Shown here in pieces: positions 21,388 through 35,685 of a DNA stretch of 64,000 nucleotides. The position numbers and the translations under genes are program-made. Source of the stretch: Acidobacteriota bacterium (GTDB taxonomy: Bacteria > Acidobacteriota > CAIWXX01). The notes under the pieces are model-generated. The model ran no database searches. It worked only from the letters and a program-made list of their open reading frames with translations, and was not told the DNA's origin. How positions within the stretch are numbered: position 1 is the stretch's first letter; every line of letters starts with the position of its first letter. The stretch covers positions 32,001 through 96,000 of the forward strand of contig JBFMAF010000028.1 in the NCBI GenBank assembly GCA_040755995.1, in the 5' to 3' direction.

Positions 21388-24300
21388 TTACTCCTGGACC
21401 GCCTCGTCGCGCAGCGCGAAGAGCTCCTTGAGCTCACTCGTGCTGAGCTCCGTCAGCCACCCCTCCCCAGTCCCGACCACCCGGGCCGAGATCTCGCTCT
21501 TCCGCTCGATCATCTCGTCTATTCTCTCTTCCACGGTTCCCTGGCAGATGAACTTGTGCACCTGCACGTTGCGGGTCTGGCCGATCCTGAATGCACGGTC
21601 AGTCGCCTGGTTTTCAACGGCCGGGTTCCACCAGCGGTCGAAATGGAAGACGTGGCTGGCGCGGGTGAGATTCAGGCCGGTGCCGCCCGCCTTCAGCGAA
21701 AGCAGGAACACAGGCGGCGCCTCGCCGTCGCCCTGGAAGCGCGCGACCATGGCGTCGCGCTGCTTCTTCGGCGTCGCGCCGTGCAAGAACAGGATCTCGC
21801 GGCCGAAGGTCTCCTGCAGGTACCGCTGCAAGATCGCACCCATCTCGGCGAACTGCGTGAAGACGAGGGCGCAATCGCCCGCGAGGATCATCTCGTCGAG
21901 CATCTCCGTGAGGCGGGCGAGCTTGCCTGAGCGTCCGGGTATCTGGCTGCCGTCGCCGAGGAGCTGAGCGGGATGGTTGCATGCCTGCTTGAGCTTCATG
22001 AGCGTCGCCAGCACCAGCCCCTTCCTCTGGATACCCTCGGCTCCATCCAGCTCCTGCTCCGCATCCCTCACCACCGCGGCGTAGAGCGATGCCTGCTCCT
22101 TCGTCAGCGGGCAGTAGACCTTCATCTCCAGCTTGTCCGGCAGATCCGCGATCACCGTCTTGTCGGTCTTCAGCCGTCTCAGGATGAACGGCCCGGTGAG
22201 GCGCTTCAGGCGCTCGACTGCATGCGGGTCCTTGTCAACCTGGATAGGAAGGAAGAACCGCCGCTTGAAGTCGCTGTTCGTGCCGAGATAGCCGGGATTG
22301 AGAAACTCCATGATCGACCACAGATCGCCGACGTTGTTCTCGACCGGCGTACCCGTCAGCGCAATGCGACAGTCGGCCTGCAGCGAGCGGGCGCATCGCG
22401 CCTGTTTCGTCTCGGGGTTCTTGATGTTCTGCGCCTCGTCGAGCACGATCGCGCCCCACGCGACGTCTTTGAACAGGTCGAAGTCGCGGTGCAGAAGCGG
22501 ATAGCTGCTCACTACGAGAGCATGCCTGGCGGCCTGCTTTCGGAAGGCCGCGCCCCTCATGCGCTCGGTCCCGTGATGGACCAGGACGGGGAGATCCGGC
22601 GTGAAGCGCTCCGCTTCCTTCTGCCAGTTGCCGGTGACCGAGGTCGGGCAGATCAGCAGCACCGGGGCGCGCCGGTTCTCCCGCCAGTCTCGCTGGATCA
22701 ACGCGAGCACCTGGATGGTCTTGCCCAGACCCATGTCGTCGGCCAGGCACGCGCCCAGTCCCCAGCGGCGCAGGAAAGCGAGCCACGAGTACCCTCGGAG
22801 CTGGTACGGTCGCAGCCGCCCTTCGAACCCCTCGGGATGGCCGAACTCCGAGTACGGAGCGCTGCCGTCGAGCTGCGCCAACAACTCCCCGATCCAACCC
22901 TCCGCCACCGCACTCTGGATCTCGACACCCGCCACCGGCGCCGCGGCGCCGAGACCCATGCGCACGATGTCTCGCACGCGCATCTGTCCGCCGCCGTTCT
23001 TCCACAGGTCGACAGCGGCGCGGATCTGGTCTGCCGACAGTTGTACCCACTGCCCCCTGAGTCGCACGAGGGGCGCCTTGAGTTTCGCCAGCGCCTCCAG
23101 CTCGGCTCGTGAGAGTGTCGCGTCCCCCAGCGCCACCTCCCAATCGAAGCCCACAACCGCGTCCAGCGTGAGACCGCTCGGGCTCTTCAGCGGCGCGCCG
23201 GCGACGCGCGCACGCGCGGCAAGCCGCAGCTTCGTGCCTCTGCCGGTCCACCATGCTGGTGCCATCACGACGAAGCCGGACTGTTCGAGGGCGGCCGCCT
23301 TCTCCGTCAGGAACTCGGAGGCGCCGGCTGTGTCGAGGGGGTAGCCCGATGGTTCGGCCGCGTTGAGGCAAGCCTCTATGCGCGGGCAGATGCCGGCGGC
23401 CTGGCCCAGCGCCGCCAGCAGATACTCCCGTGGACTCGAATCGCCACGCGGAAGCAAGACGGTTCGCGCCGTGTGATCCTTCCATATGTCGGATGCTTCT
23501 ACGAGGAGGCTCGGGTCGGCCGCTGGCTGCAGCAGAAAGCGCACGAACCAGCTCGCCAGGTCTTCCCTCTTCCGCGCGGTACGTTTCGGCCGCCCCGGCG
23601 GCTCGGCGTCCGCGCGGCCGTCGGGTTCGGGCGGCTCCTCCAGCCGGAAGCACAGCTTGACGGGCGCCGCCTCGGTCATCTGCAGCGGCAAGCGCCATGA
23701 GCGGATATCGGCGGCCAGCTTCTCGATCTCGTCATGGCCGCCCAGCATGAATCCGTCATCTTCGTGCAGCGCGTGCATCCACTGATCGTGGGTGCTGTCG
23801 AAGATGCGCCTTCGCCTGGGAGCCGGCAGCGGGGGCAATGCGGCGGAAGGGAGTCCGGACCTGACGATGTGGTCCACGACCGAGGTGAGGAACGCTGTGA
23901 GGGCCGCCGAGGGTGAGGCAGGAGGCACCTCCGGGTCGCTCGTGAGCGCGCGGGCCGAGTGGGGCATGACCGCTGCGAGTTTCTGCAAGCGATCGGCGTC
24001 GACCCCTCCGACTACCGGTTCCCATCGCGCGTACCAGCCGTCTTCCAGCCTCGCAAGGCCCGGCAAGAACTGCTGGCGTGCGACGAGCGCGGAGGCGAAT
24101 CGGAGCGCACCAGCCCAGAATCGCAGGTCGCGAGCGATGAGAACCCCCGGGCCGAGCGTCTCGCGATCAAGGCACTCGCCGAGGAGTTGCGTGGCCTGCG
24201 TTGGCGAGAGCCTCAAAGCCTCCACTGTCCACTTCGACATCACGATCTCCGAGCCCTCCTGCGGCGGCTCCGCCACCAGCGGTGTGGATGCGATGGGCCG

Positions 24301-24543
24301 CCCGTCCCGGGCCGGAATCGAGATCGTGAGGCGCTGCACGTCTCTCGTTGCGGCCCAGTTCTCGCCAAGAACGCCGGCGAGCGTACCCGTGATCGCCTTG
24401 GTGCCCGCGCCGAACGGCAGCGGATTCGCCCGGCTGGTCCTGGCCGAGCGCCCCCGCTTGCGAGCCGGTGCCGGTGTATCGACTGGCTGCTCGGCCCAGA
24501 GGAACAACTCGTGCGCAACTTGTGCGGCATGCAATACGATCAT
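21388..24543 (-). CDS. SNF2-family helicase/ATPase (HelZ-like)
   Basis: LRPYQLRG, LADDMGLGKT, DEAQ, TGTPVEN, GGTGLNLT, WWNPAVENQATDRAFRIGQ. Confidence 0.95.
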   Translation of the reverse strand: MIVLHAAQVAHELFLWAEQPVDTPAPARKRGRSARTSRANPLPFGAGTKAITGTLAGVLGENWAATRDVQRLTISIPARDGRPIASTPLVAEPPQEGSEIVMSKWTVEALRLSPTQATQLLGECLDRETLGPGVLIARDLRFWAGALRFASALVARQQFLPGLARLEDGWYARWEPVVGGVDADRLQKLAAVMPHSARALTSDPEVPPASPSAALTAFLTSVVDHIVRSGLPSAALPPLPAPRRRRIFDSTHDQWMHALHEDDGFMLGGHDEIEKLAADIRSWRLPLQMTEAAPVKLCFRLEEPPEPDGRADAEPPGRPKRTARKREDLASWFVRFLLQPAADPSLLVEASDIWKDHTARTVLLPRGDSSPREYLLAALGQAAGICPRIEACLNAAEPSGYPLDTAGASEFLTEKAAALEQSGFVVMAPAWWTGRGTKLRLAARARVAGAPLKSPSGLTLDAVVGFDWEVALGDATLSRAELEALAKLKAPLVRLRGQWVQLSADQIRAAVDLWKNGGGQMRVRDIVRMGLGAAAPVAGVEIQSAVAEGWIGELLAQLDGSAPYSEFGHPEGFEGRLRPYQLRGYSWLAFLRRWGLGACLADDMGLGKTIQVLALIQRDWRENRRAPVLLICPTSVTGNWQKEAERFTPDLPVLVHHGTERMRGAAFRKQAARHALVVSSYPLLHRDFDLFKDVAWGAIVLDEAQNIKNPETKQARCARSLQADCRIALTGTPVENNVGDLWSIMEFLNPGYLGTNSDFKRRFFLPIQVDKDPHAVERLKRLTGPFILRRLKTDKTVIADLPDKLEMKVYCPLTKEQASLYAAVVRDAEQELDGAEGIQRKGLVLATLMKLKQACNHPAQLLGDGSQIPGRSGKLARLTEMLDEMILAGDCALVFTQFAEMGAILQRYLQETFGREILFLHGATPKKQRDAMVARFQGDGEAPPVFLLSLKAGGTGLNLTRASHVFHFDRWWNPAVENQATDRAFRIGQTRNVQVHKFICQGTVEERIDEMIERKSEISARVVGTGEGWLTELSTSELKELFALRDEAVQE

Positions 24544-24657
24544 GTGATCACCTTGCCGTCGCTTCTGCGCGACGGAGCAGACTGCGGAGCTTGTTCTGCG
24601 TGGACTCGGCCGCGCCGCTGCCGGCGCCGTCGACCCATCGCATCAGCCTCGGGTCGT

Positions 24658-27264
24658 TCATGCCGTCTCCGCGAGGCGCGCGATCCACTCCTCGGCTTCC
24701 GCGACTGCGGGCCGGGCCAGGCTTTCGTCGACTTCAACGCCCTGGGTCTCGAGGGTGGTGAGGTCGTGCAACCGCGCGAGCGCTGACGGAGCGGCGTGTG
24801 GGAGCCGGCCGCTCGGGATCAGATCGCGGTATATGCAGGCCACGAGCGCGGCGTGACCCTGTGGCGGAGCTCCCTCGGTTCGGGTGGCGATGGCCGCCGC
24901 CAGGGCCTCGTATGAGGCCCTCACCGCATCGCCCCAGAAGCCCGCATCGAGCACGACTCTGGCGAGGCGTATCCTGTTCTGGGCCCTGGCATGCGCCCTT
25001 GGTTGGGACAGTGGCGCAGGCTGCCGCGCAGGCTCCTGAGTCATCGGCACCACGATCTCGCCCGTGGCCAGGACTGCATGGGACTCCGGCTGCGGACGGG
25101 CCTCGATCTGAGCTTGAGCGGCAGGCTCGACAACAGCCTCGACGGGCTCCTGCAAGCGCGTCTCCTCCTCGGTGCCCACGATCTCTACGTCCTCGCCCGG
25201 CTCGGCTACTTGCTCGAGCACCTCATGAAGCTGCCGCAAGAACACCGAGAAACTGGCGGTTTCCACGCTCTCCACATCGCTCGACTGATCCAGCGCCGCC
25301 GTCCGAATTTCGCGCTTCCGCGACAGAGTCTGTTCGATGCCTCGCTCGATACCGCTCTCCGAGCACAGGTAGGTCGCGAAGACGCCGCGGGTCTGCCCCA
25401 GTCTGTGAGCGCGGGAGGTGCGTTGATCGAGCCGCCCGGGATTCCAGGGGAGATCGAGATGAACAACGTAGTTGGCCACCTGCAGGTTCAGCCCCACCCC
25501 GCCGGCGTCAGTTGAAAGCAGCACTCTGTGCCGATCATCGCGGCGGAAGCGGTCGAGGAGCGCCGGGCGCTTGTCGGTCGGAACTCCTCCGTGAAGCATC
25601 GCGTAGCCGATCGACTGGCCATCGAGCCGGTCAGCGGCCAGATTGAGCATCTGCACCCACTCGGAGAACACGAGCACCTTGCTCTCACCCTGCGAGGCGA
25701 TTTCGGAGATCAGGGCTTCGAACTCGTCGAGTTTTGGAGATGCCTTCGTCCTACTTGCCGGATCGCAGAGCTCCAGCGCGTTGCACGCCTGCCTCGCCTT
25801 GAGCAGCAGCGCCTGAAGCTTCTTCTGCTCGTCGGGACGCAGCGGTCTTCTTTCGGCGATGGCCATCAGGCGCGCCGCATCGGCGCGATAAGCCGATTCC
25901 AGGTCGGCCTGCTCTTTCGTCAACGGCGTGTATCGGGTCTGCTCGGTGAGCGACGGAAGCTGCGAAAGCACCTCCTCCTTGCGGCGCCGGAGCACTACTG
26001 GCTCGACTCGCTTGCGGAGGGACGAGAGGTTCTTGCAACCGATGATCTTGCCCTTGTCATTCTGGTGGTGGAAGTCGAGATTGAATCTCCAGAGTGGCCC
26101 CAAGACCTCGGGATCGATGAGCTGCAGCAACGAATAGAGATCGTCGAGGCGATTCTCGATGGGCGTGCCGGTCAAGACGAAGAGGAACCGTGATGGGATC
26201 GCGCGCAGAGTCTTCGCCGTCTTCGTTCGGAAGTTCTTGGCGCGCTGTGCTTCGTCGAGGATGAGAATATCGGTGTCGAGGTCCTGCAGGCGAGGGAGCT
26301 CTTTCCAGGTCAGCTCGTAGTTGAGCACCTTGTACGGGGCGTCCGACTCGAAGGCGGCTCGCCGGCCATGAAGTCCGCCTCCGACGACGGCTGCCCTGAC
26401 GTTGGCGTAGCGTTCGATCTCCTTGGCCCACTGGTGCTTCAACGATGCCGGCGTCACGACCACGACTCGATTCACTTCGCCGCGTGCTCTGAGGACCTCG
26501 CACGCAGCAATGGCCTGCACGGTCTTTCCGAGCCCCATGTCGTCGGCCAGGAGTGCGCGACCGGACGAGGCGAGGTGTTTCACGCCGTCGTGCTGGTATG
26601 GAAACAGCGGTCGCGCGAGGACGTCGACGCCGATGCGTCCATCGACGAGCGCGCGCAGCAGACCATCGCGGCGCCCGTCGGTCCGCGCCCTGGCCCGGAT
26701 TCGTTCGACGGCGGGCATGACCGCATGGACGACCCGCACCGCGTGTTCGTTCCACGCCTGATCTGGAGAAACCGGCGCTTCCCACTCGACGAACCCGCCG
26801 TCGCCGCCGGTCGTCAGCCCGAGGGCATCGAGCTGCTGGCGTGTCCATCGCCCGGCGGTCCGCAGTCGAATCCTGCCTCGGGCATCTACGGTGAGCGTTG
26901 GAATGAGGGGCGACTGAGGTAGCTGCTGCCAGGCACGGCGTGGACGCGGGATGGAAGTCAAGGCACGAGAGACGGCCTCGAGGTGCTTGCACGTGCCCAG
27001 CTCGTTGCTCAGGAAATCGGGGCAGGAGCATGTGTCATGACTGTGGCTCCCGTCGACGACGTCGACGAGGTAGGCGCCGCCGCTGGCCCCCGCCACCTCA
27101 TAGCACCCATCGATCCGATCGTCTCGCGGCGTCACGATGAAAGGCTCCGAGTAAGCTCGATGCCGCCGCACCTCGCGCTCGTACATCACCACGGCCTCCG
27201 CGCTCTCGAAATCCGAGCACACCGGTGCCGTACGTCTCACCGGAAGCAATCGAATCGACTTCAT
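24658..27264 (-). CDS. SNF2-family ATPase with N-terminal SWIM finger and C-terminal HEPN-like domain
   Basis: CSCPDF....LGTCKH; LADDMGLGKT, DEAQ, TGTPIEN, GGVGLNLQ, WNP..LDQR..RAHRLGQ; C-terminal LAR..LDAGFWGDAVRASYEA...GHAAL...A..AVAEAEEWI. Confidence 0.9.
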   Translation of the reverse strand: MKSIRLLPVRRTAPVCSDFESAEAVVMYEREVRRHRAYSEPFIVTPRDDRIDGCYEVAGASGGAYLVDVVDGSHSHDTCSCPDFLSNELGTCKHLEAVSRALTSIPRPRRAWQQLPQSPLIPTLTVDARGRIRLRTAGRWTRQQLDALGLTTGGDGGFVEWEAPVSPDQAWNEHAVRVVHAVMPAVERIRARARTDGRRDGLLRALVDGRIGVDVLARPLFPYQHDGVKHLASSGRALLADDMGLGKTVQAIAACEVLRARGEVNRVVVVTPASLKHQWAKEIERYANVRAAVVGGGLHGRRAAFESDAPYKVLNYELTWKELPRLQDLDTDILILDEAQRAKNFRTKTAKTLRAIPSRFLFVLTGTPIENRLDDLYSLLQLIDPEVLGPLWRFNLDFHHQNDKGKIIGCKNLSSLRKRVEPVVLRRRKEEVLSQLPSLTEQTRYTPLTKEQADLESAYRADAARLMAIAERRPLRPDEQKKLQALLLKARQACNALELCDPASRTKASPKLDEFEALISEIASQGESKVLVFSEWVQMLNLAADRLDGQSIGYAMLHGGVPTDKRPALLDRFRRDDRHRVLLSTDAGGVGLNLQVANYVVHLDLPWNPGRLDQRTSRAHRLGQTRGVFATYLCSESGIERGIEQTLSRKREIRTAALDQSSDVESVETASFSVFLRQLHEVLEQVAEPGEDVEIVGTEEETRLQEPVEAVVEPAAQAQIEARPQPESHAVLATGEIVVPMTQEPARQPAPLSQPRAHARAQNRIRLARVVLDAGFWGDAVRASYEALAAAIATRTEGAPPQGHAALVACIYRDLIPSGRLPHAAPSALARLHDLTTLETQGVEVDESLARPAVAEAEEWIARLAETA

Positions 27265-27403
27265 CAGACTCCTCCCCTCTGTGGTCCGGAAGCAAGTACG
27301 TTACGCCCGGAGGGGGATGGCGGTCAAGGGCATCTGCCGACTTCGGATTGAACCCGTGGGTTCTTCGAGGCTACCAAGTCGTCGACGTTGTCATGGTGTC
27401 GCG

Positions 27404-27468
27404 AAAGAACACGGCTCACGGGCGGCCTGGCGAAGGCGAGCGGCCGCCGCGGAGCCGCTTGTGGTACG
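27404..27468 (-). mobile_element. Degenerate attC-like hairpin after the aspartic protease gene
   Basis: Minus strand GTACCACAAGCGGCTC..CGGCGGCC...GGCCGCCCG-TGAGCCG-TGTT right after the stop. Confidence 0.4.
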
Positions 27469-27469
27469 T

Positions 27470-27865
<396 letters not shown>

Positions 27866-28037
27866 CTATTCCTTTGCAAGCGTATGACCAATGTTCATGT
27901 GGTTTCCAGACAAACGCGGTTTCTTCCCTTTCCCTCCAGATGATAAGCGGCATAGAACCCCGCGTCAACATGGCTGCAGTCGATTCAATGGGGCCGCGGA
28001 CTGTTCACGACGGTGTACCACGACTTCGCGGCGCCGC

Positions 28038-28299
28038 CTGACCCGCGCCGGGCGCGCTACCGAGAGGAGGGCTTTGGCCTGTAGTCGCGACGGTCGAGGC
28101 ACGAGTATGTATGGCCGAACGCGTCTCGTGCAGAATGGTAGAGATTCTGGCCGTCGAAGAATTCCACGGCTCGCTTGACGGATGCTTCTGCTGGCATTCT
28201 CAGGTCCCGAAATGGATAACCCCGCCCGGGCCTACCGGCGTGTCGAGCGGGGAGCAAGTGTGCACTAGAAACATAAGACCGTGCGTGCTCGCTGTCAAC
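28038..28299 (-). repeat. Unit copy 1: promoter + bulged RNA hairpin + 46-aa mini-NYN ORF
   Basis: TTGACA(28298)-N17-TATGTT; hairpin 28220-28252; ORF 28197-28057 MPAEASVKRAVEFFDGQNLYHSARDAFGHTYSCLDRRDYRPKPSSR; homologous to 28933-29350. Confidence 0.8.
28057..28197 (-). pseudogene. Internally deleted NYN/LabA-domain ORF (46 aa)
   Basis: N-terminal RAVEFFDGQNLYH motif joined directly to C-terminal CLDRRDYR. Confidence 0.7.
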
Positions 28300-28361
28300 T
28301 GCCCAGTGCAGCGGCAGTCAGTCTCTTGACGCTCCGGGTATTCACATGTCATACTCTGGAC

Positions 28362-28598
28362 ATGAAGATTGCGATTTCCGTTCCAGATCCTGTGTTCGAG
28401 GCCGCGGAGCGCATGTCGCGCCGAATGCGCGTGTCGCGAAGCCGTCTGTATGCCAAAGCAGTTGAAGACTACGTGAACAGACACTCGGGCGAGGAGATTA
28501 CCGCGCAACTCGACAGGGTGTATTCGCGGACCTCATCGAAGCTCGATCCTGCCATTGAGAGAGGGACGCTGGAGGTGCTCCGGCGGGAGGGACGGTAG
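28362..28598 (+). CDS. Ribbon-helix-helix antitoxin (MazE/ChpI-like)
   Basis: MKIAISVPD.VFEAAE......VSRS.LY..AV.DY; overlaps the toxin start; promoter TTGACG-N18-CATACT at 28326-28355. Confidence 0.85.
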   Translation: MKIAISVPDPVFEAAERMSRRMRVSRSRLYAKAVEDYVNRHSGEEITAQLDRVYSRTSSKLDPAIERGTLEVLRREGR

Positions 28599-28936
28599 TG
28601 AATCGAGGAGACATCTGGTGGGCGGATTTCGGCATGCCGTTCGGTTCGGAGCCCGGCTACAGGCGCCCCGTCCTTGTGCTCCAAGCGGATCAATTCAATC
28701 GCAGCCGCATCCAGACGGTGATAGTGGTGCCCATGTCGGGCAACACTCGCCTGGCTGAGGCCCCCGGGAACGTGCTCTGCCGGCCTGGAGACACCGGGCT
28801 CGAGAAACTATCCGTCGCGAACGTCTCTCAGCTCGCGGTAATCGACAGGAAGCGCCTGCAGGAGAGAATGGGGACACTTCCGCCGCGGCTGTTGACACAA
28901 GTCGAAGAAGGCGTGCGTCTCGTCCTCGATCTCTGA
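28598..28936 (+). CDS. mazF: MazF/PemK endoribonuclease toxin
   Basis: RGDIWWADF....GSEPGYRRPVLVLQ.D.FN.S.I.TVIVVP, GNV, SVANVSQ. Confidence 0.92.
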   Translation: MNRGDIWWADFGMPFGSEPGYRRPVLVLQADQFNRSRIQTVIVVPMSGNTRLAEAPGNVLCRPGDTGLEKLSVANVSQLAVIDRKRLQERMGTLPPRLLTQVEEGVRLVLDL

Positions 28937-29160
28937 GCCGCGCCGGGCGCGCTACTGTGCGGTGGACTTTGCTTTATAGCCGCGACGGTCGAGGCACGAG
29001 TATGTATGGCCGAACGCCTCTCGTGGCGAACGGCGTAGATTCCGGCCATGCACCACGTCGACAGCCCGCTGGACCGGTGGTGCTGCCGGCATATATGCCC
29101 TCACAGGAAGAAATAACCCCGATCGAGGCCTGACGAAGCAGGCGTGTCAAGCGGGGCGCA
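28933..29160 (-). repeat. Unit copy 2: bulged hairpin + 46-aa mini-NYN ORF (no own promoter)
   Basis: Hairpin CCCCGCTTG-ACAC-GCCTG...CAGGC...CGGGG-TTAT; ORF 29092-28952 MPAAPPVQRAVDVVHGRNLRRSPREAFGHTYSCLDRRGYKAKSTAQ; same length and junction as copy 1. Confidence 0.75.
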
Positions 29161-29350
29161 TAGCATGTGCGAAGCACTCGGGAGCCGAGTGGTACACGTT
29201 CTGCCCGTCGATGAATACCACGACTCGCTTGACGGGTGGTTCTGTTGGCATTCCTGGTCCAGAGATGGATAACCCCGCCCGGGCCTCGCGGCGTGTCGAG
29301 CGGGGAGCAAGTGCAGTCACAACATAAGACCCTGGGGCCTTGCTGTCAAC
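29161..29350 (-). repeat. Unit copy 3: promoter + bulged hairpin + NYN N-terminus only
   Basis: TTGACA-N17-TATGTT; hairpin with GCGA loop; ATG at 29251 MPTEPPVKRVVVFIDGQNVYHSA. Confidence 0.75.
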
Positions 29351-29414
29351 GGTCCATCATCAATCAAGACGTCGTCGAGTAGCTATTGACAATAGATGGG
29401 GTGTGCACCTTAGG

Positions 29415-29508
29415 GGTGCGGCCCGCGGAGGCGCGTGCGTTGAAACCGATCTGAATCGGCACTGCCCCCAGTGCAGGCCGCGCCCCGCGCGGGCGCGTGG
29501 ATGGCATT
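29415..29508 (+). CRISPR. Orphan degenerate type I-C-like mini-array (repeat-30 nt spacer-repeat)
   Basis: 29415-29446 and 29477-29508 match a typical I-C repeat GTCGCGCCCCGCGCGGGCGCGTGGATTGAAAC at 25/32 and 27/32 by hand alignment; no cas genes in the window. Confidence 0.6.
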
Positions 29509-29524
29509 GCGAGTGAGGGCCCGC

Positions 29525-29546
29525 TATAATGCAACCTGGAGGTTGC
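29525..29546 (+). promoter_or_regulatory. -10 box and palindromic operator of the SRPBCC-ArsR operon
   Basis: TATAAT at 29525-29530 followed by GCAACC-TGGA-GGTTGC just before the ATG. Confidence 0.65.
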
Positions 29547-29548
29547 CA

Positions 29549-30037
29549 ATGAACGCGGACCGCATCGAGAAGGAGATTCTGCTGCGCGCGCCCCGAAGTC
29601 GAGTCTGGCGCGCGCTGATCGATTCCACCGAGTTCGGGCGCTGGTTCGGTATGAGACTCGACGCGCCCTTCACACCCGGGGCCCGGTTGCAAGCCAAGAT
29701 CGTACCTACGGAGGTAGACGCCGAGGTCGCGAGGGCGCAGAAGCCGTACGAAGGCACCGCCTTCGAAATTGTCATCGGACAGATCGAGCCGGAACGACTG
29801 TTCTCCTTCCGCTGGCATCCATTCGCCGTTGAACAAGGTGTCGACTATTCCTCGGAGCCGATGACACTGGTCACATTCACGTTGGAAGAAGTCGAGGGAG
29901 GCATCTTGCTGACGGTCATCGAGTCCGGCTTTGACCAGGTCCCTCTCGATCGTCGTGCGAAGGCGTTCAGCGCGAACGAGGAAGGATGGGCCATGGTGGT
30001 GAGACTCATCGAGGGGTATCTTGTCCAGACACCGTAG
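29549..30037 (+). CDS. SRPBCC / AHSA1-like (START fold) protein
   Basis: DRIEKEILLRAPRSRVWRAL, FSFRWHP, TLVTFTL, ESGFD, NEEGW. Confidence 0.9.
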   Translation: MNADRIEKEILLRAPRSRVWRALIDSTEFGRWFGMRLDAPFTPGARLQAKIVPTEVDAEVARAQKPYEGTAFEIVIGQIEPERLFSFRWHPFAVEQGVDYSSEPMTLVTFTLEEVEGGILLTVIESGFDQVPLDRRAKAFSANEEGWAMVVRLIEGYLVQTP

Positions 30038-34903: not shown

Positions 34904-35161
34904 ATGAAGATGATGTCTGTCCGAGACCTCCGCCAGCGCTGGCCGGCGGCGGAAAAGGCCCTTGCCGCCGAAGGTGAGATCGTAGTGACACGTGACTCCA
35001 AGCCGGTCGCGAGGATACTGCCTTTCAAGCTGCGGGATAGCAGACCGCGCAAGCGATTCGATGCGGAAACCCACCTGCGGTGGATGGCGAGATTCTGGAG
35101 AGGGCGAAGGCTGCCGCCCATCGACGCCGAGTTGGCTGGGGACCGCGCCGATAGTGACTGA
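34904..35161 (+). CDS. Phd/YefM-family antitoxin
   Basis: MK.MSVRDLR......EKAL..EGEIVVTRD.KPVARI. Confidence 0.8.
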   Translation: MKMMSVRDLRQRWPAAEKALAAEGEIVVTRDSKPVARILPFKLRDSRPRKRFDAETHLRWMARFWRGRRLPPIDAELAGDRADSD

Positions 35162-35250
35162 TCATCCGGGCCTCAACGAACGCGCGATCGGGGTCAACGC
35201 CGCCATGCCGATCAGGTGGATCGGATAGGCGAAGGACTGGACGGCCGCCG

Positions 35251-35685
35251 GTGGCGCTCTACCTCGACACGAGTTGCCTCTTGAAGCTCCTGTTTTCGGA
35301 GCCCGAGAGCGCGCGAGTCGCTCAGATCATTGCAGCCGAGAAGCGAGTCATCGTCTCGTCACTGGGTCGGCTCGAAGCGCTGGTGCGAATACGCGCACGC
35401 CGCTTGAGCGGTAGCATCAGTGCCGCAGAGGGGCGGCGACTGCTGCGGGCGCTCGACAGACTCACGAGCGCAGAGCCCTTCGTGACTCTGGATTGCCCTG
35501 TCACGATCTTCAAGGACGCCGAGCGACAGTTAGCGTCCGGTATCTCCAGGACTTGCTGCCGAACACTCGACCGGCTACACCTGGCAGCGGCGCTTGCACT
35601 GGAAGCCAAGCGGCTCCTGACCAACGACGACGCGCAGGCGAGGGCCGCCAAGGCGCTGAAGCTCCGCGTAGTGATACCGCGCTGA
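35251..35685 (+). CDS. vapC: VapC (PIN-domain) toxin
   Basis: YLDTS.LLKL...EPES, S.L..LE, RTLDRLHLAAA, LLTND. Confidence 0.88.
   Translation: MALYLDTSCLLKLLFSEPESARVAQIIAAEKRVIVSSLGRLEALVRIRARRLSGSISAAEGRRLLRALDRLTSAEPFVTLDCPVTIFKDAERQLASGISRTCCRTLDRLHLAAALALEAKRLLTNDDAQARAAKALKLRVVIPR

Follow-up and report, generated by a model that had tools for sequence, protein, structure and literature searches.

The locus at positions 28038–29350 of the window—the window being the whole analysed stretch of 64,000 nucleotides from an Acidobacteriota bacterium—raises the question of why one short hairpin, each time followed by the beginning of an NYN nuclease gene, should occur there three times on the minus strand. 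The earlier note saw a triplicated unit of promoter, bulged hairpin and miniature NYN ORF bracketing mazEF, and suggested that the parent locus may be an RNase controlled by its own structured RNA, either a type III-like toxin–antitoxin or an autoregulatory leader. The answer proposed here from comparative sequence analysis is that the hairpin probably serves as a hitherto undescribed RNA antidote against an antiviral toxin, one that phages would imitate as a decoy, whereas the window copies themselves are decayed and dead, their value lying in the family that they expose. The features of the three copies are as follows.

29321..29349, minus strand: copy 1 sigma-70-type promoter TTGACA-17-TATGTT (sequence and promoter scan)
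29264..29314, minus strand: copy 1 RNA motif (family covariance model R1, 62.2 bits; mismatches in 0/27 conserved columns)
29147..29251, minus strand: copy 1 NYN remnant (PF01936, E 0.11), the N-terminal ~27 codons, then the copy 2 hairpin and a stop
29108..29165, minus strand: copy 2 RNA motif, degenerate (R1 37.1 bits; mismatches 2/27)
28933..29092, minus strand: copy 2 NYN remnant, degenerate, an internal deletion fusing the N- and C-terminal ends (9/33 conserved coding positions changed)
28270..28298, minus strand: copy 3 sigma-70-type promoter TTGACA-17-TATGTT (sequence and promoter scan)
28211..28261, minus strand: copy 3 RNA motif, intact, with a weak U-tract (R1 63.2 bits; mismatches 0/27)
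28038..28197, minus strand: copy 3 NYN remnant, a 46-codon ORF (deletion junction that of copy 2; shared 3′ tail)

All the features named for the three units were thus found, the promoters of copies 1 and 3 at 29349-29321 and 28298-28270, and the hairpins with their TTAT and differing apical loops at 29305-29269 (copy 1, loop GCGA), 29156-29113 (copy 2, loop TGCTTCGTCA) and 28252-28216 (copy 3, loop GGTA). The unit is triplicated in number but not in content, copy 2 being promoterless with a degenerate ORF and copy 1 retaining just the N-terminal part of its gene. In the 5′ to 3′ direction, the RNA of copy 1 consists of an unpaired leader, stem P1, an internal loop, stem P2, a GNRA loop, the UUAU tail and a weak U-tract; it is identical to that of copy 3 at 47/51 nt. 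The RNA of copy 2 has lost the A at position -7 and has one mismatch in P1 and a loop of 10 nt. As for the ACAC bulge reported earlier, the site is conserved, but it really combines an internal loop of 3x1 with one A-U pair, the U of which is absent in 13/75 family members and in window copies 1 and 3. Six promoter-like sites were recognized by the promoter scan in 27800-29600, compared with 0.3 +/- 0.5 in shuffled sequences. The strict hairpin pattern occurs at three places in the whole 7.7-Mb genome, all of them in this locus, and model R1 run over the 64-kb window matches only the three copies. It should be noted that the folding energy of the window hairpins is by itself unremarkable (z -1.3 to -2.4), and that the support for them is conservation, not folding energy. 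The Rfam search of 27800-29600 gave no match at the hairpin, and the terminator scan recognized neither copy 1 nor copy 3.

Concerning the miniature ORFs, their NYN-like start stands, yet they are deletion scars of a ~210-aa gene rather than mini-proteins. The search with the copy 3 peptide yielded 10 matches among 12 candidates, these being ~210-aa NYN proteins with PF01936 in 9/10, and the peptide aligns with the first ~31 and the last ~11 residues of that family. Copies 2 and 3 fuse residues ~1-31 to ~197-207 at a single common junction and share their 3′ tail (56/67 nt identical), while the reading frame of copy 1 is truncated at about codon 27; the N-terminal coding stretches of the three copies are identical at 48-62/81 nt. 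A functional mini-protein was ruled out, since the deletion junctions vary from locus to locus and none is therefore conserved. The RNA has accumulated fewer mismatches than the coding part, both in copy 2 (2/27 vs 9/33) and in copies 1 and 3 (0/27 vs 2/28 and 2/33), counts that are suggestive but too small for a claim of selection on the RNA after gene loss. The host genome, 99.84% complete, has 0 matches to PF01936 and no intact NYN gene; with the nuclease gone, the RNAs of copies 1 and 3 are left as orphans, either relics or anti-addiction elements.

The copies surround a mazEF-like pair, composed of the following features.

28598..28936, plus strand: toxin gene of the MazF/PemK family, in convergent orientation to copy 2 (PF02452, E 1.3e-27; NF007386, E 2.8e-5, under its cut-off)
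28362..28598, plus strand: probable ribbon-helix-helix antitoxin gene of the pair (RHH_3, E 0.037, weak; position; ATG at 28362)
28326..28355, plus strand: promoter-like site of the pair, lying back to back with that of copy 3 (promoter scan)

The bracketing described earlier is real, but mazEF is an unrelated neighbour, an independent cassette at the same spot; its role as a system component was ruled out by the lack of any recurrent MazF-like neighbour (109/153 picked ORFs scanned). Several other elements were seen in the window. Directly after an aspartyl-protease-like gene (27470-27850, minus strand) lies a long imperfect palindrome (27386-27480), present as a single copy in the genome, which we take to resemble an integron attC site, and the translation of 27965-28040 (plus strand, convergent with copy 3) is presumably reminiscent of the end of a PIN-domain gene. 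Two adjoining SNF2 helicase genes, one with SWIM and one with DUF3670, occupy 21388-27264 (minus strand), and a Phd/YefM-PIN toxin–antitoxin pair is found at 34904-35685 (plus strand).

The parent cassette was studied in the best 80 intact loci of at least 372 relatives (at least 602 candidate stretches) obtained by a scan of GTDB genomes, their record titles covering more than a dozen phylum-level groups. The order is a promoter, recognized in most of the loci, a ~50-nt hairpin and a ~210-aa NYN gene: the hairpin is found upstream of the full-length gene in 80/80 of these best loci (79 placed by script and L086 by eye, with L057 and L089 corrected by hand), an independent terminator test likewise detects a terminator-like hairpin in 80/80, and a sigma-70-like promoter precedes the hairpin in 63/80 (shuffled mean 10.6, maximum 17). 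In all the intact loci of the clade examined, the hairpin is in cis and in sense orientation, mostly 10-40 nt ahead of the NYN start. The -10 box is 15-17 nt from the hairpin in 45/63 loci with a promoter call; the promoter-to-hairpin distance ranges from 11 to 35 nt, while the unpaired flanks stay tied to the hairpin. Of these flanks, the leader keeps A(-7) in 79/80, U(-4) in 80/80 and C(-2) in 76/80 loci, and the positions of the U-U-A-U tail are kept in 77, 75, 72 and 77 of 77; in 73/77, the G+C stem leads into a stretch with 6-7 U in 8. The layout put forward in the earlier note, a structured RNA plus a terminator-like hairpin, is thus present, except that one hairpin serves as both.

The structure was derived from an alignment of 75 of 83 loci, six duplicates as well as L092 (contig end) and L027 (long loop) having been left out. 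It comprises a 10-bp stem, the 3x1 internal loop and a 3-bp stem, nested and closed by a variable loop (4 nt in 61/75). Pairing is observed in 99.1% of 962 cells, as opposed to 32-53% in slid-register controls, and compensatory changes affect 11/13 pairs (46 cells), a value that is reached by 0/500 shuffles, which, however, ignore kinship. There are 72 G-U cells vs 4 A-C ones, and the loop is of the GNRA type in 51/75; this asymmetry together with the GNRA loops speaks for an RNA encoded on the hairpin strand. No Rfam family matches the hairpin, either in 18 loci at the gathering score or in 19 plasmid and viral loci, the latter giving only sub-threshold terminator-like matches, e.g. to Thr_leader near enterobacterial NYN genes. 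Pairing of the 5′ arm with a Shine–Dalgarno sequence was inspected by eye, and several loci with 10-15 nt spacers have no clear site. Two metatranscriptomes match L013:4700-5800 at 7-8% of words, their contigs, of depth 2-5, covering parts of NYN and not the hairpin, a comparison with no DNA control that is uninformative in either direction. The parent locus envisaged earlier has thus passed the computational tests proposed for it, namely hairpin conservation, covariation and absence from Rfam; tandem repeats and a separate terminator, as known from classical type III systems, are absent in the clade, where a single motif lies between promoter and gene.

The NYN proteins of the clade share 55-98% identity (median 66%) and keep the acidic residues D15, E114, D118, D143 and D145 in 78-79/79 sequences. 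Their predicted structure (pLDDT 81.6) has as its best fold match 2qip (E 1.4e-6), listed as an NYN.COG1432 structure in PMC5499597. Based on these residues and the fold, the intact homologues are predicted to be ribonucleases of the NYN family PF01936. The protein had no match in the PDB sequence search and the intact protein none in NCBIfam, and the GenBank phage collection yielded no NYN homologue. A related uncharacterised group amounts to 390 clusters at 50% identity (E up to 1e-30).

The RNA motif is specific to this clade. Within the host's own phylum, model R1 scored at least 30 bits upstream of 14/15 further clade loci (L411 repeats a training sequence and L423 scored 18.7), and it matched 0/60 loci of other NYN clades. 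A metagenome scan starting from the hairpin pattern placed 97 of the 120 matches listed ahead of an NYN sequence, with 22 lacking it and one at an edge; a general attenuator for unrelated genes was ruled out for the hairpin motif on this ground. Among the listed metagenome hairpins with a 750-nt flank (n=64), the NYN gene is intact in 41, broken in 14 and missing in 9. A kept hairpin is thus followed by a broken or missing gene in 23/64 cases with differing junctions, a count without a control gene to which assembly errors may contribute. Several of the NYN-less metagenome hairpins are followed by a few N-terminal codons and then by what we take to be other toxin–antitoxin-like genes. Additional RNA copies, in tandem or scattered, with NYN remnants or none, were also seen in individual genomes (L262/L270, L416, L341, L342). 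The spread is patchy, the RNA being present in 8/150 and the protein in 17/401 genomes. With regard to the neighbourhood, the largest common family is found at 6/80 intact loci, the named neighbours including restriction-modification, GmrSD, BrnT, MazE, WYL and AbiEii-type genes. A type II protein partner was ruled out, no family going beyond these 6/80 loci, and no cognate protein antitoxin is conserved.

The hairpin also occurs in viruses. Three pattern scans of IMG/VR gave 46, 28 and 21 matches, overlapping and partly due to chance, from which 29 records with a model score of at least 38 bits and no NYN downstream were kept. Many of these are kin, falling by eye into about 13 groups. A cognate NYN was found anywhere in the record in 0/29 cases, the control record being positive and only 2/29 records being at least 90% complete; a PF01936 search of five of the viral records gave no match. 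Two of the viral loci, L215 and L226, are decayed cassettes in which the promoter and several NYN codons persist; a promoter-like site is present in only 4/29. According to a mechanical scan, the hairpin lies at most 30 nt from an upstream stop codon in 18/29. Conservation of the leader was followed in those distinct viral hairpins without NYN in which the outer stem is perfect (n=20, a further 11 with an imperfect stem having been set aside). The two search patterns did not include the leader bases, which are nevertheless conserved in 17, 19 and 18 of 20. In the same 20, the U-tract has at least 6 U in 8 in 11, which could be terminators, and at most 5 in 9.

The genomic contexts of the viral copies vary. 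In L333, the hairpin is flanked by tRNA-Ser and tRNA-Trp, and in L329 it directly precedes tRNA-Met in a tRNA cluster, both records encoding a terminase; elsewhere it follows the major head gene (L232), precedes the scaffolding gene (L248) or follows a polymerase exonuclease gene (L258). In a provirus (L221:2036-2400), an HNH endonuclease gene apparently splits the tRNA-like element 3′ of the hairpin. In one viral group (L224:-, L229:1913+, L252:-, L304:-, L343:601-635+, L345), a second conserved bulged hairpin adjoins the NYN-type hairpin in either order. This second element has a ParB-like module on one side and a DNA methylase gene on the other, and a tRNA-like element often comes after it. 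A scan for it alone returned 8 records, two new ones also carrying the NYN-type motif (35.5 bits) and then a tRNA-like element; in L224 and L229 it has no Rfam match. It is possibly another decoy RNA.

More distant homologues on plasmids, with 23-33% identity to the window's clade, match the candidate defence family HEC-09 of PADLOC. The profile PDLC04163 recognizes these sister proteins over its full length with E values up to 6e-98 (136-324 bits for six proteins) vs E ~1e-16 (56-58 bits, profile positions 2 to 149-158 of 203) for the window's clade, which is thus related to HEC-09 but probably not a member of it. Most HEC-09-type plasmid loci read by eye have hairpin-rich upstream regions of different sequence. 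In the host's own phylum, a terminator-like hairpin is found within 150 nt upstream of 12/20 parsed HEC-09-like genes vs 3/20 parsed canonical NYN genes (2/22 and 10/30 loci, respectively, being left unparsed), and the three canonical loci have no promoter ahead of the hairpin. A two-stem RNA motif of the HEC-09 clade has compensatory changes in 14/22 pairs over 8 sequences; six loci carry it in sense orientation and four on the opposite strand, in three of these four together with a promoter-like site of its own. An RNA whose transcription leads away from a gene is unable to attenuate it, although it should be pointed out that, with ~30% identity between the clades, the HEC-09-clade RNAs bear on the window's clade by analogy alone. 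When HEC-09 was cloned with its putative native promoter region, E. coli was reported to be protected against none of the phages tested (10.1101/2024.01.29.577857).

Further arrangements were seen beside NYN genes. In four enterobacterial plasmids of 3.5-4.3 kb (L273, L275, L276, L274), the HEC-09-type NYN gene is preceded, as judged by eye, by a tandem pair of double-hairpin units with a strong terminator, which of all layouts comes nearest to the classical type III one. NYN genes are also adjoined by two additional RNA-like motifs, each specific to a clade, in the alphaproteobacterial plasmids L283, L284 and L285 and in L277, L280 and L351; the promoter-like site present in L280 and L351 is oriented such that the RNA would be transcribed away from the NYN gene.

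Based on the above results, the intact cassette is on balance best described as a putative AbiF-like, type III-like toxin–antitoxin with NYN as its toxin and with decoy RNAs in phages, a description to which we would give somewhat better than an even chance. It is suggested by the layout, the covariation, the conserved flanks, the acidic residues, the lack of a protein partner, the gene loss and the NYN-less viral copies. By analogy with AbiF and type III systems, the hairpin would be made as an abundant small RNA binding and neutralising the predicted RNase toxin. Most transcripts would end at the leaky U-tract and a minority would read through into NYN, leaving the RNA in excess, and the protein would recognise the internal loop together with the single-stranded flanks. 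Phage infection or loss of the cassette would halt the RNA supply, upon which free NYN would cut cellular RNA and the cell would arrest; phages, for their part, may express the hairpin as a decoy. Several points speak against this toxin–antitoxin reading, among them HEC-09 giving no phage protection, the lack of tandem repeats and of a separate terminator, and all examined intact clade loci being in cis and sense, an arrangement that fits an attenuator too.

Such an attenuator would be an autoregulatory leader, the NYN protein binding or cutting its own 5′ hairpin and thus limiting read-through or mRNA life, in cis only and with no toxin required. This is unlikely, if by no means negligible. 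The cis and sense position mostly 10-40 nt before the start and the doubling of the hairpin as a leaky terminator agree with it, and RCd22, in the account of 10.1101/2025.04.15.648962, also acts in cis by termination; yet NYN-less and mostly promoterless viral copies retain the unpaired leader, the RNA of the HEC-09 clade points away from its gene in 4/10 loci, and the patchy spread (17/401 genomes) with frequent gene loss suits a selfish or defence module. The NYN-less viral copies and the divergent sister-clade RNAs favour the putative type III-like branch over the autoregulatory one of the two that the earlier note had left side by side. The hairpin could also be a preferred NYN substrate, a processing signal or an RNP cofactor by which phages get polycistronic or tRNA-array transcripts cut, in line with the viral copies between tRNA genes or at most 30 nt after a stop codon (18/29) and with single-stranded flanks that would suit a cleavage site; a host gene as patchy as this one (RNA in 8/150 genomes) would, however, be a poor enzyme for phages to depend on, and there is no variable spacer or guide segment save the 4-nt loop, so that this explanation appears rather improbable.

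The chances are smaller still that the hairpin is nothing but an intrinsic terminator, bound by no protein, which lowers the expression of a mobile gene and is put to further use by phages. The G+C stem with 6-7 U in 8 (73/77 loci) and the many viral copies after a stop codon are what it predicts, but a terminator needs neither a fixed internal loop nor the invariant A(-7)/U(-4) nor an A within the U-tract, all kept at a median protein identity of 66%; moreover, the 9/20 viral copies with at most 5 U still keep the leader, and window copies 1 and 3 are not called as terminators. Hardly credible is a site of recombination or insertion acting as DNA and explaining the stacking of cassettes: in several loci (the window, L262/L270, L416), cassettes are indeed stacked, with breaks close to the 5′ end of the gene, but the ratio of G-U to A-C (72 to 4), the GNRA loops and the fixed position just after the promoter point to RNA. 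Extending the toxin–antitoxin reading, the HEC-09-related NYN superclade as a whole might form a large family of antiviral ribonucleases neutralised by RNA, which would be the first such enzymes of PIN/NYN fold, with an own RNA in each sub-clade and countered by phage decoys in tRNA/small-RNA arrays; this wider proposal is offered tentatively and has, in our opinion, less than an even chance.

No publication describing an NYN RNase together with an RNA antitoxin emerged from the literature search, most subscription journals lying outside its scope and a prior mention being possible. Among the closest known systems are AbiF and abiF RNA (10.1101/2025.04.15.648962; PMC12737573), which share with the cassette the single promoter, the short structured RNA, the intrinsic terminator and the read-through into a single RNase gene; in the accounts of RCd22-AbiF of C. 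difficile and PbAbiF-AbiFr, the RNA is a non-pseudoknot hairpin, with unpaired bases implicated in inhibition. The toxin there is, however, HEPN (Abi_2) instead of NYN/PIN-like, RF03085 is not matched by the present hairpin, and RCd22 is reported to have two motifs plus a separate terminator, while here one motif is the terminator. AbiF itself has been reported as the ancestor of Cas13 (PMC12737573). The ToxIN/AbiQ, CptIN and TenpIN systems also consist, as summarized in PMC12283969, of promoter, non-coding RNA, terminator and RNase gene with no protein antitoxin, but classical type III RNAs are described as tandem repeats with a separate terminator, both absent in this clade, and as H-type pseudoknots, the covarying structure seen here being a nested two-stem hairpin; their toxins belong to the ToxN/CptN/TenpN family, unrelated to the PF01936 NYN fold. 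The cassette is therefore outside ToxIN, CptIN, TenpIN and AbiF, because toxin fold, repeats and Rfam motif fail.

Concerning the remaining relatives, HEC-09 (PADLOC PDLC04163; Payne et al., 10.1101/2024.01.29.577857) is presented as a single-gene NYN candidate defence family, the terms ‘non-coding’ and ‘ncRNA’ being absent from the main text of that article; the window's clade differs as a distant sister with its own RNA. The DUF3800-associated motifs (Weinberg et al. 2017, PMC5737381) are similar in that one protein family is reported to occur beside various terminated RNAs, unrelated to each other and oriented either way, but both the protein family and the motifs are different, and NYN, LabA and COG1432 are absent from the main text. 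The pseudo-ToxI of phage phiTE (PMC3475682) is described as a host antitoxin RNA borne by a phage without the toxin; it is, however, a laboratory-selected repeat expansion in one phage, whereas the copies reported here, putative decoys, are single and occur in several natural viral groups, two of them in tRNA arrays. If the proposed reading is true, the natural phage copies in tRNA arrays would amount to an RNA-based anti-defence of wide distribution and could be used to discover further systems of this kind. The candidate defence family HEC-09 would gain its missing component, and the large uncharacterised NYN group a function. Toxin-binding RNA antitoxins have been described for the ToxN-like and HEPN (AbiF) folds, and a PIN/NYN RNase held by a 50-nt RNA would, if confirmed, add the third.
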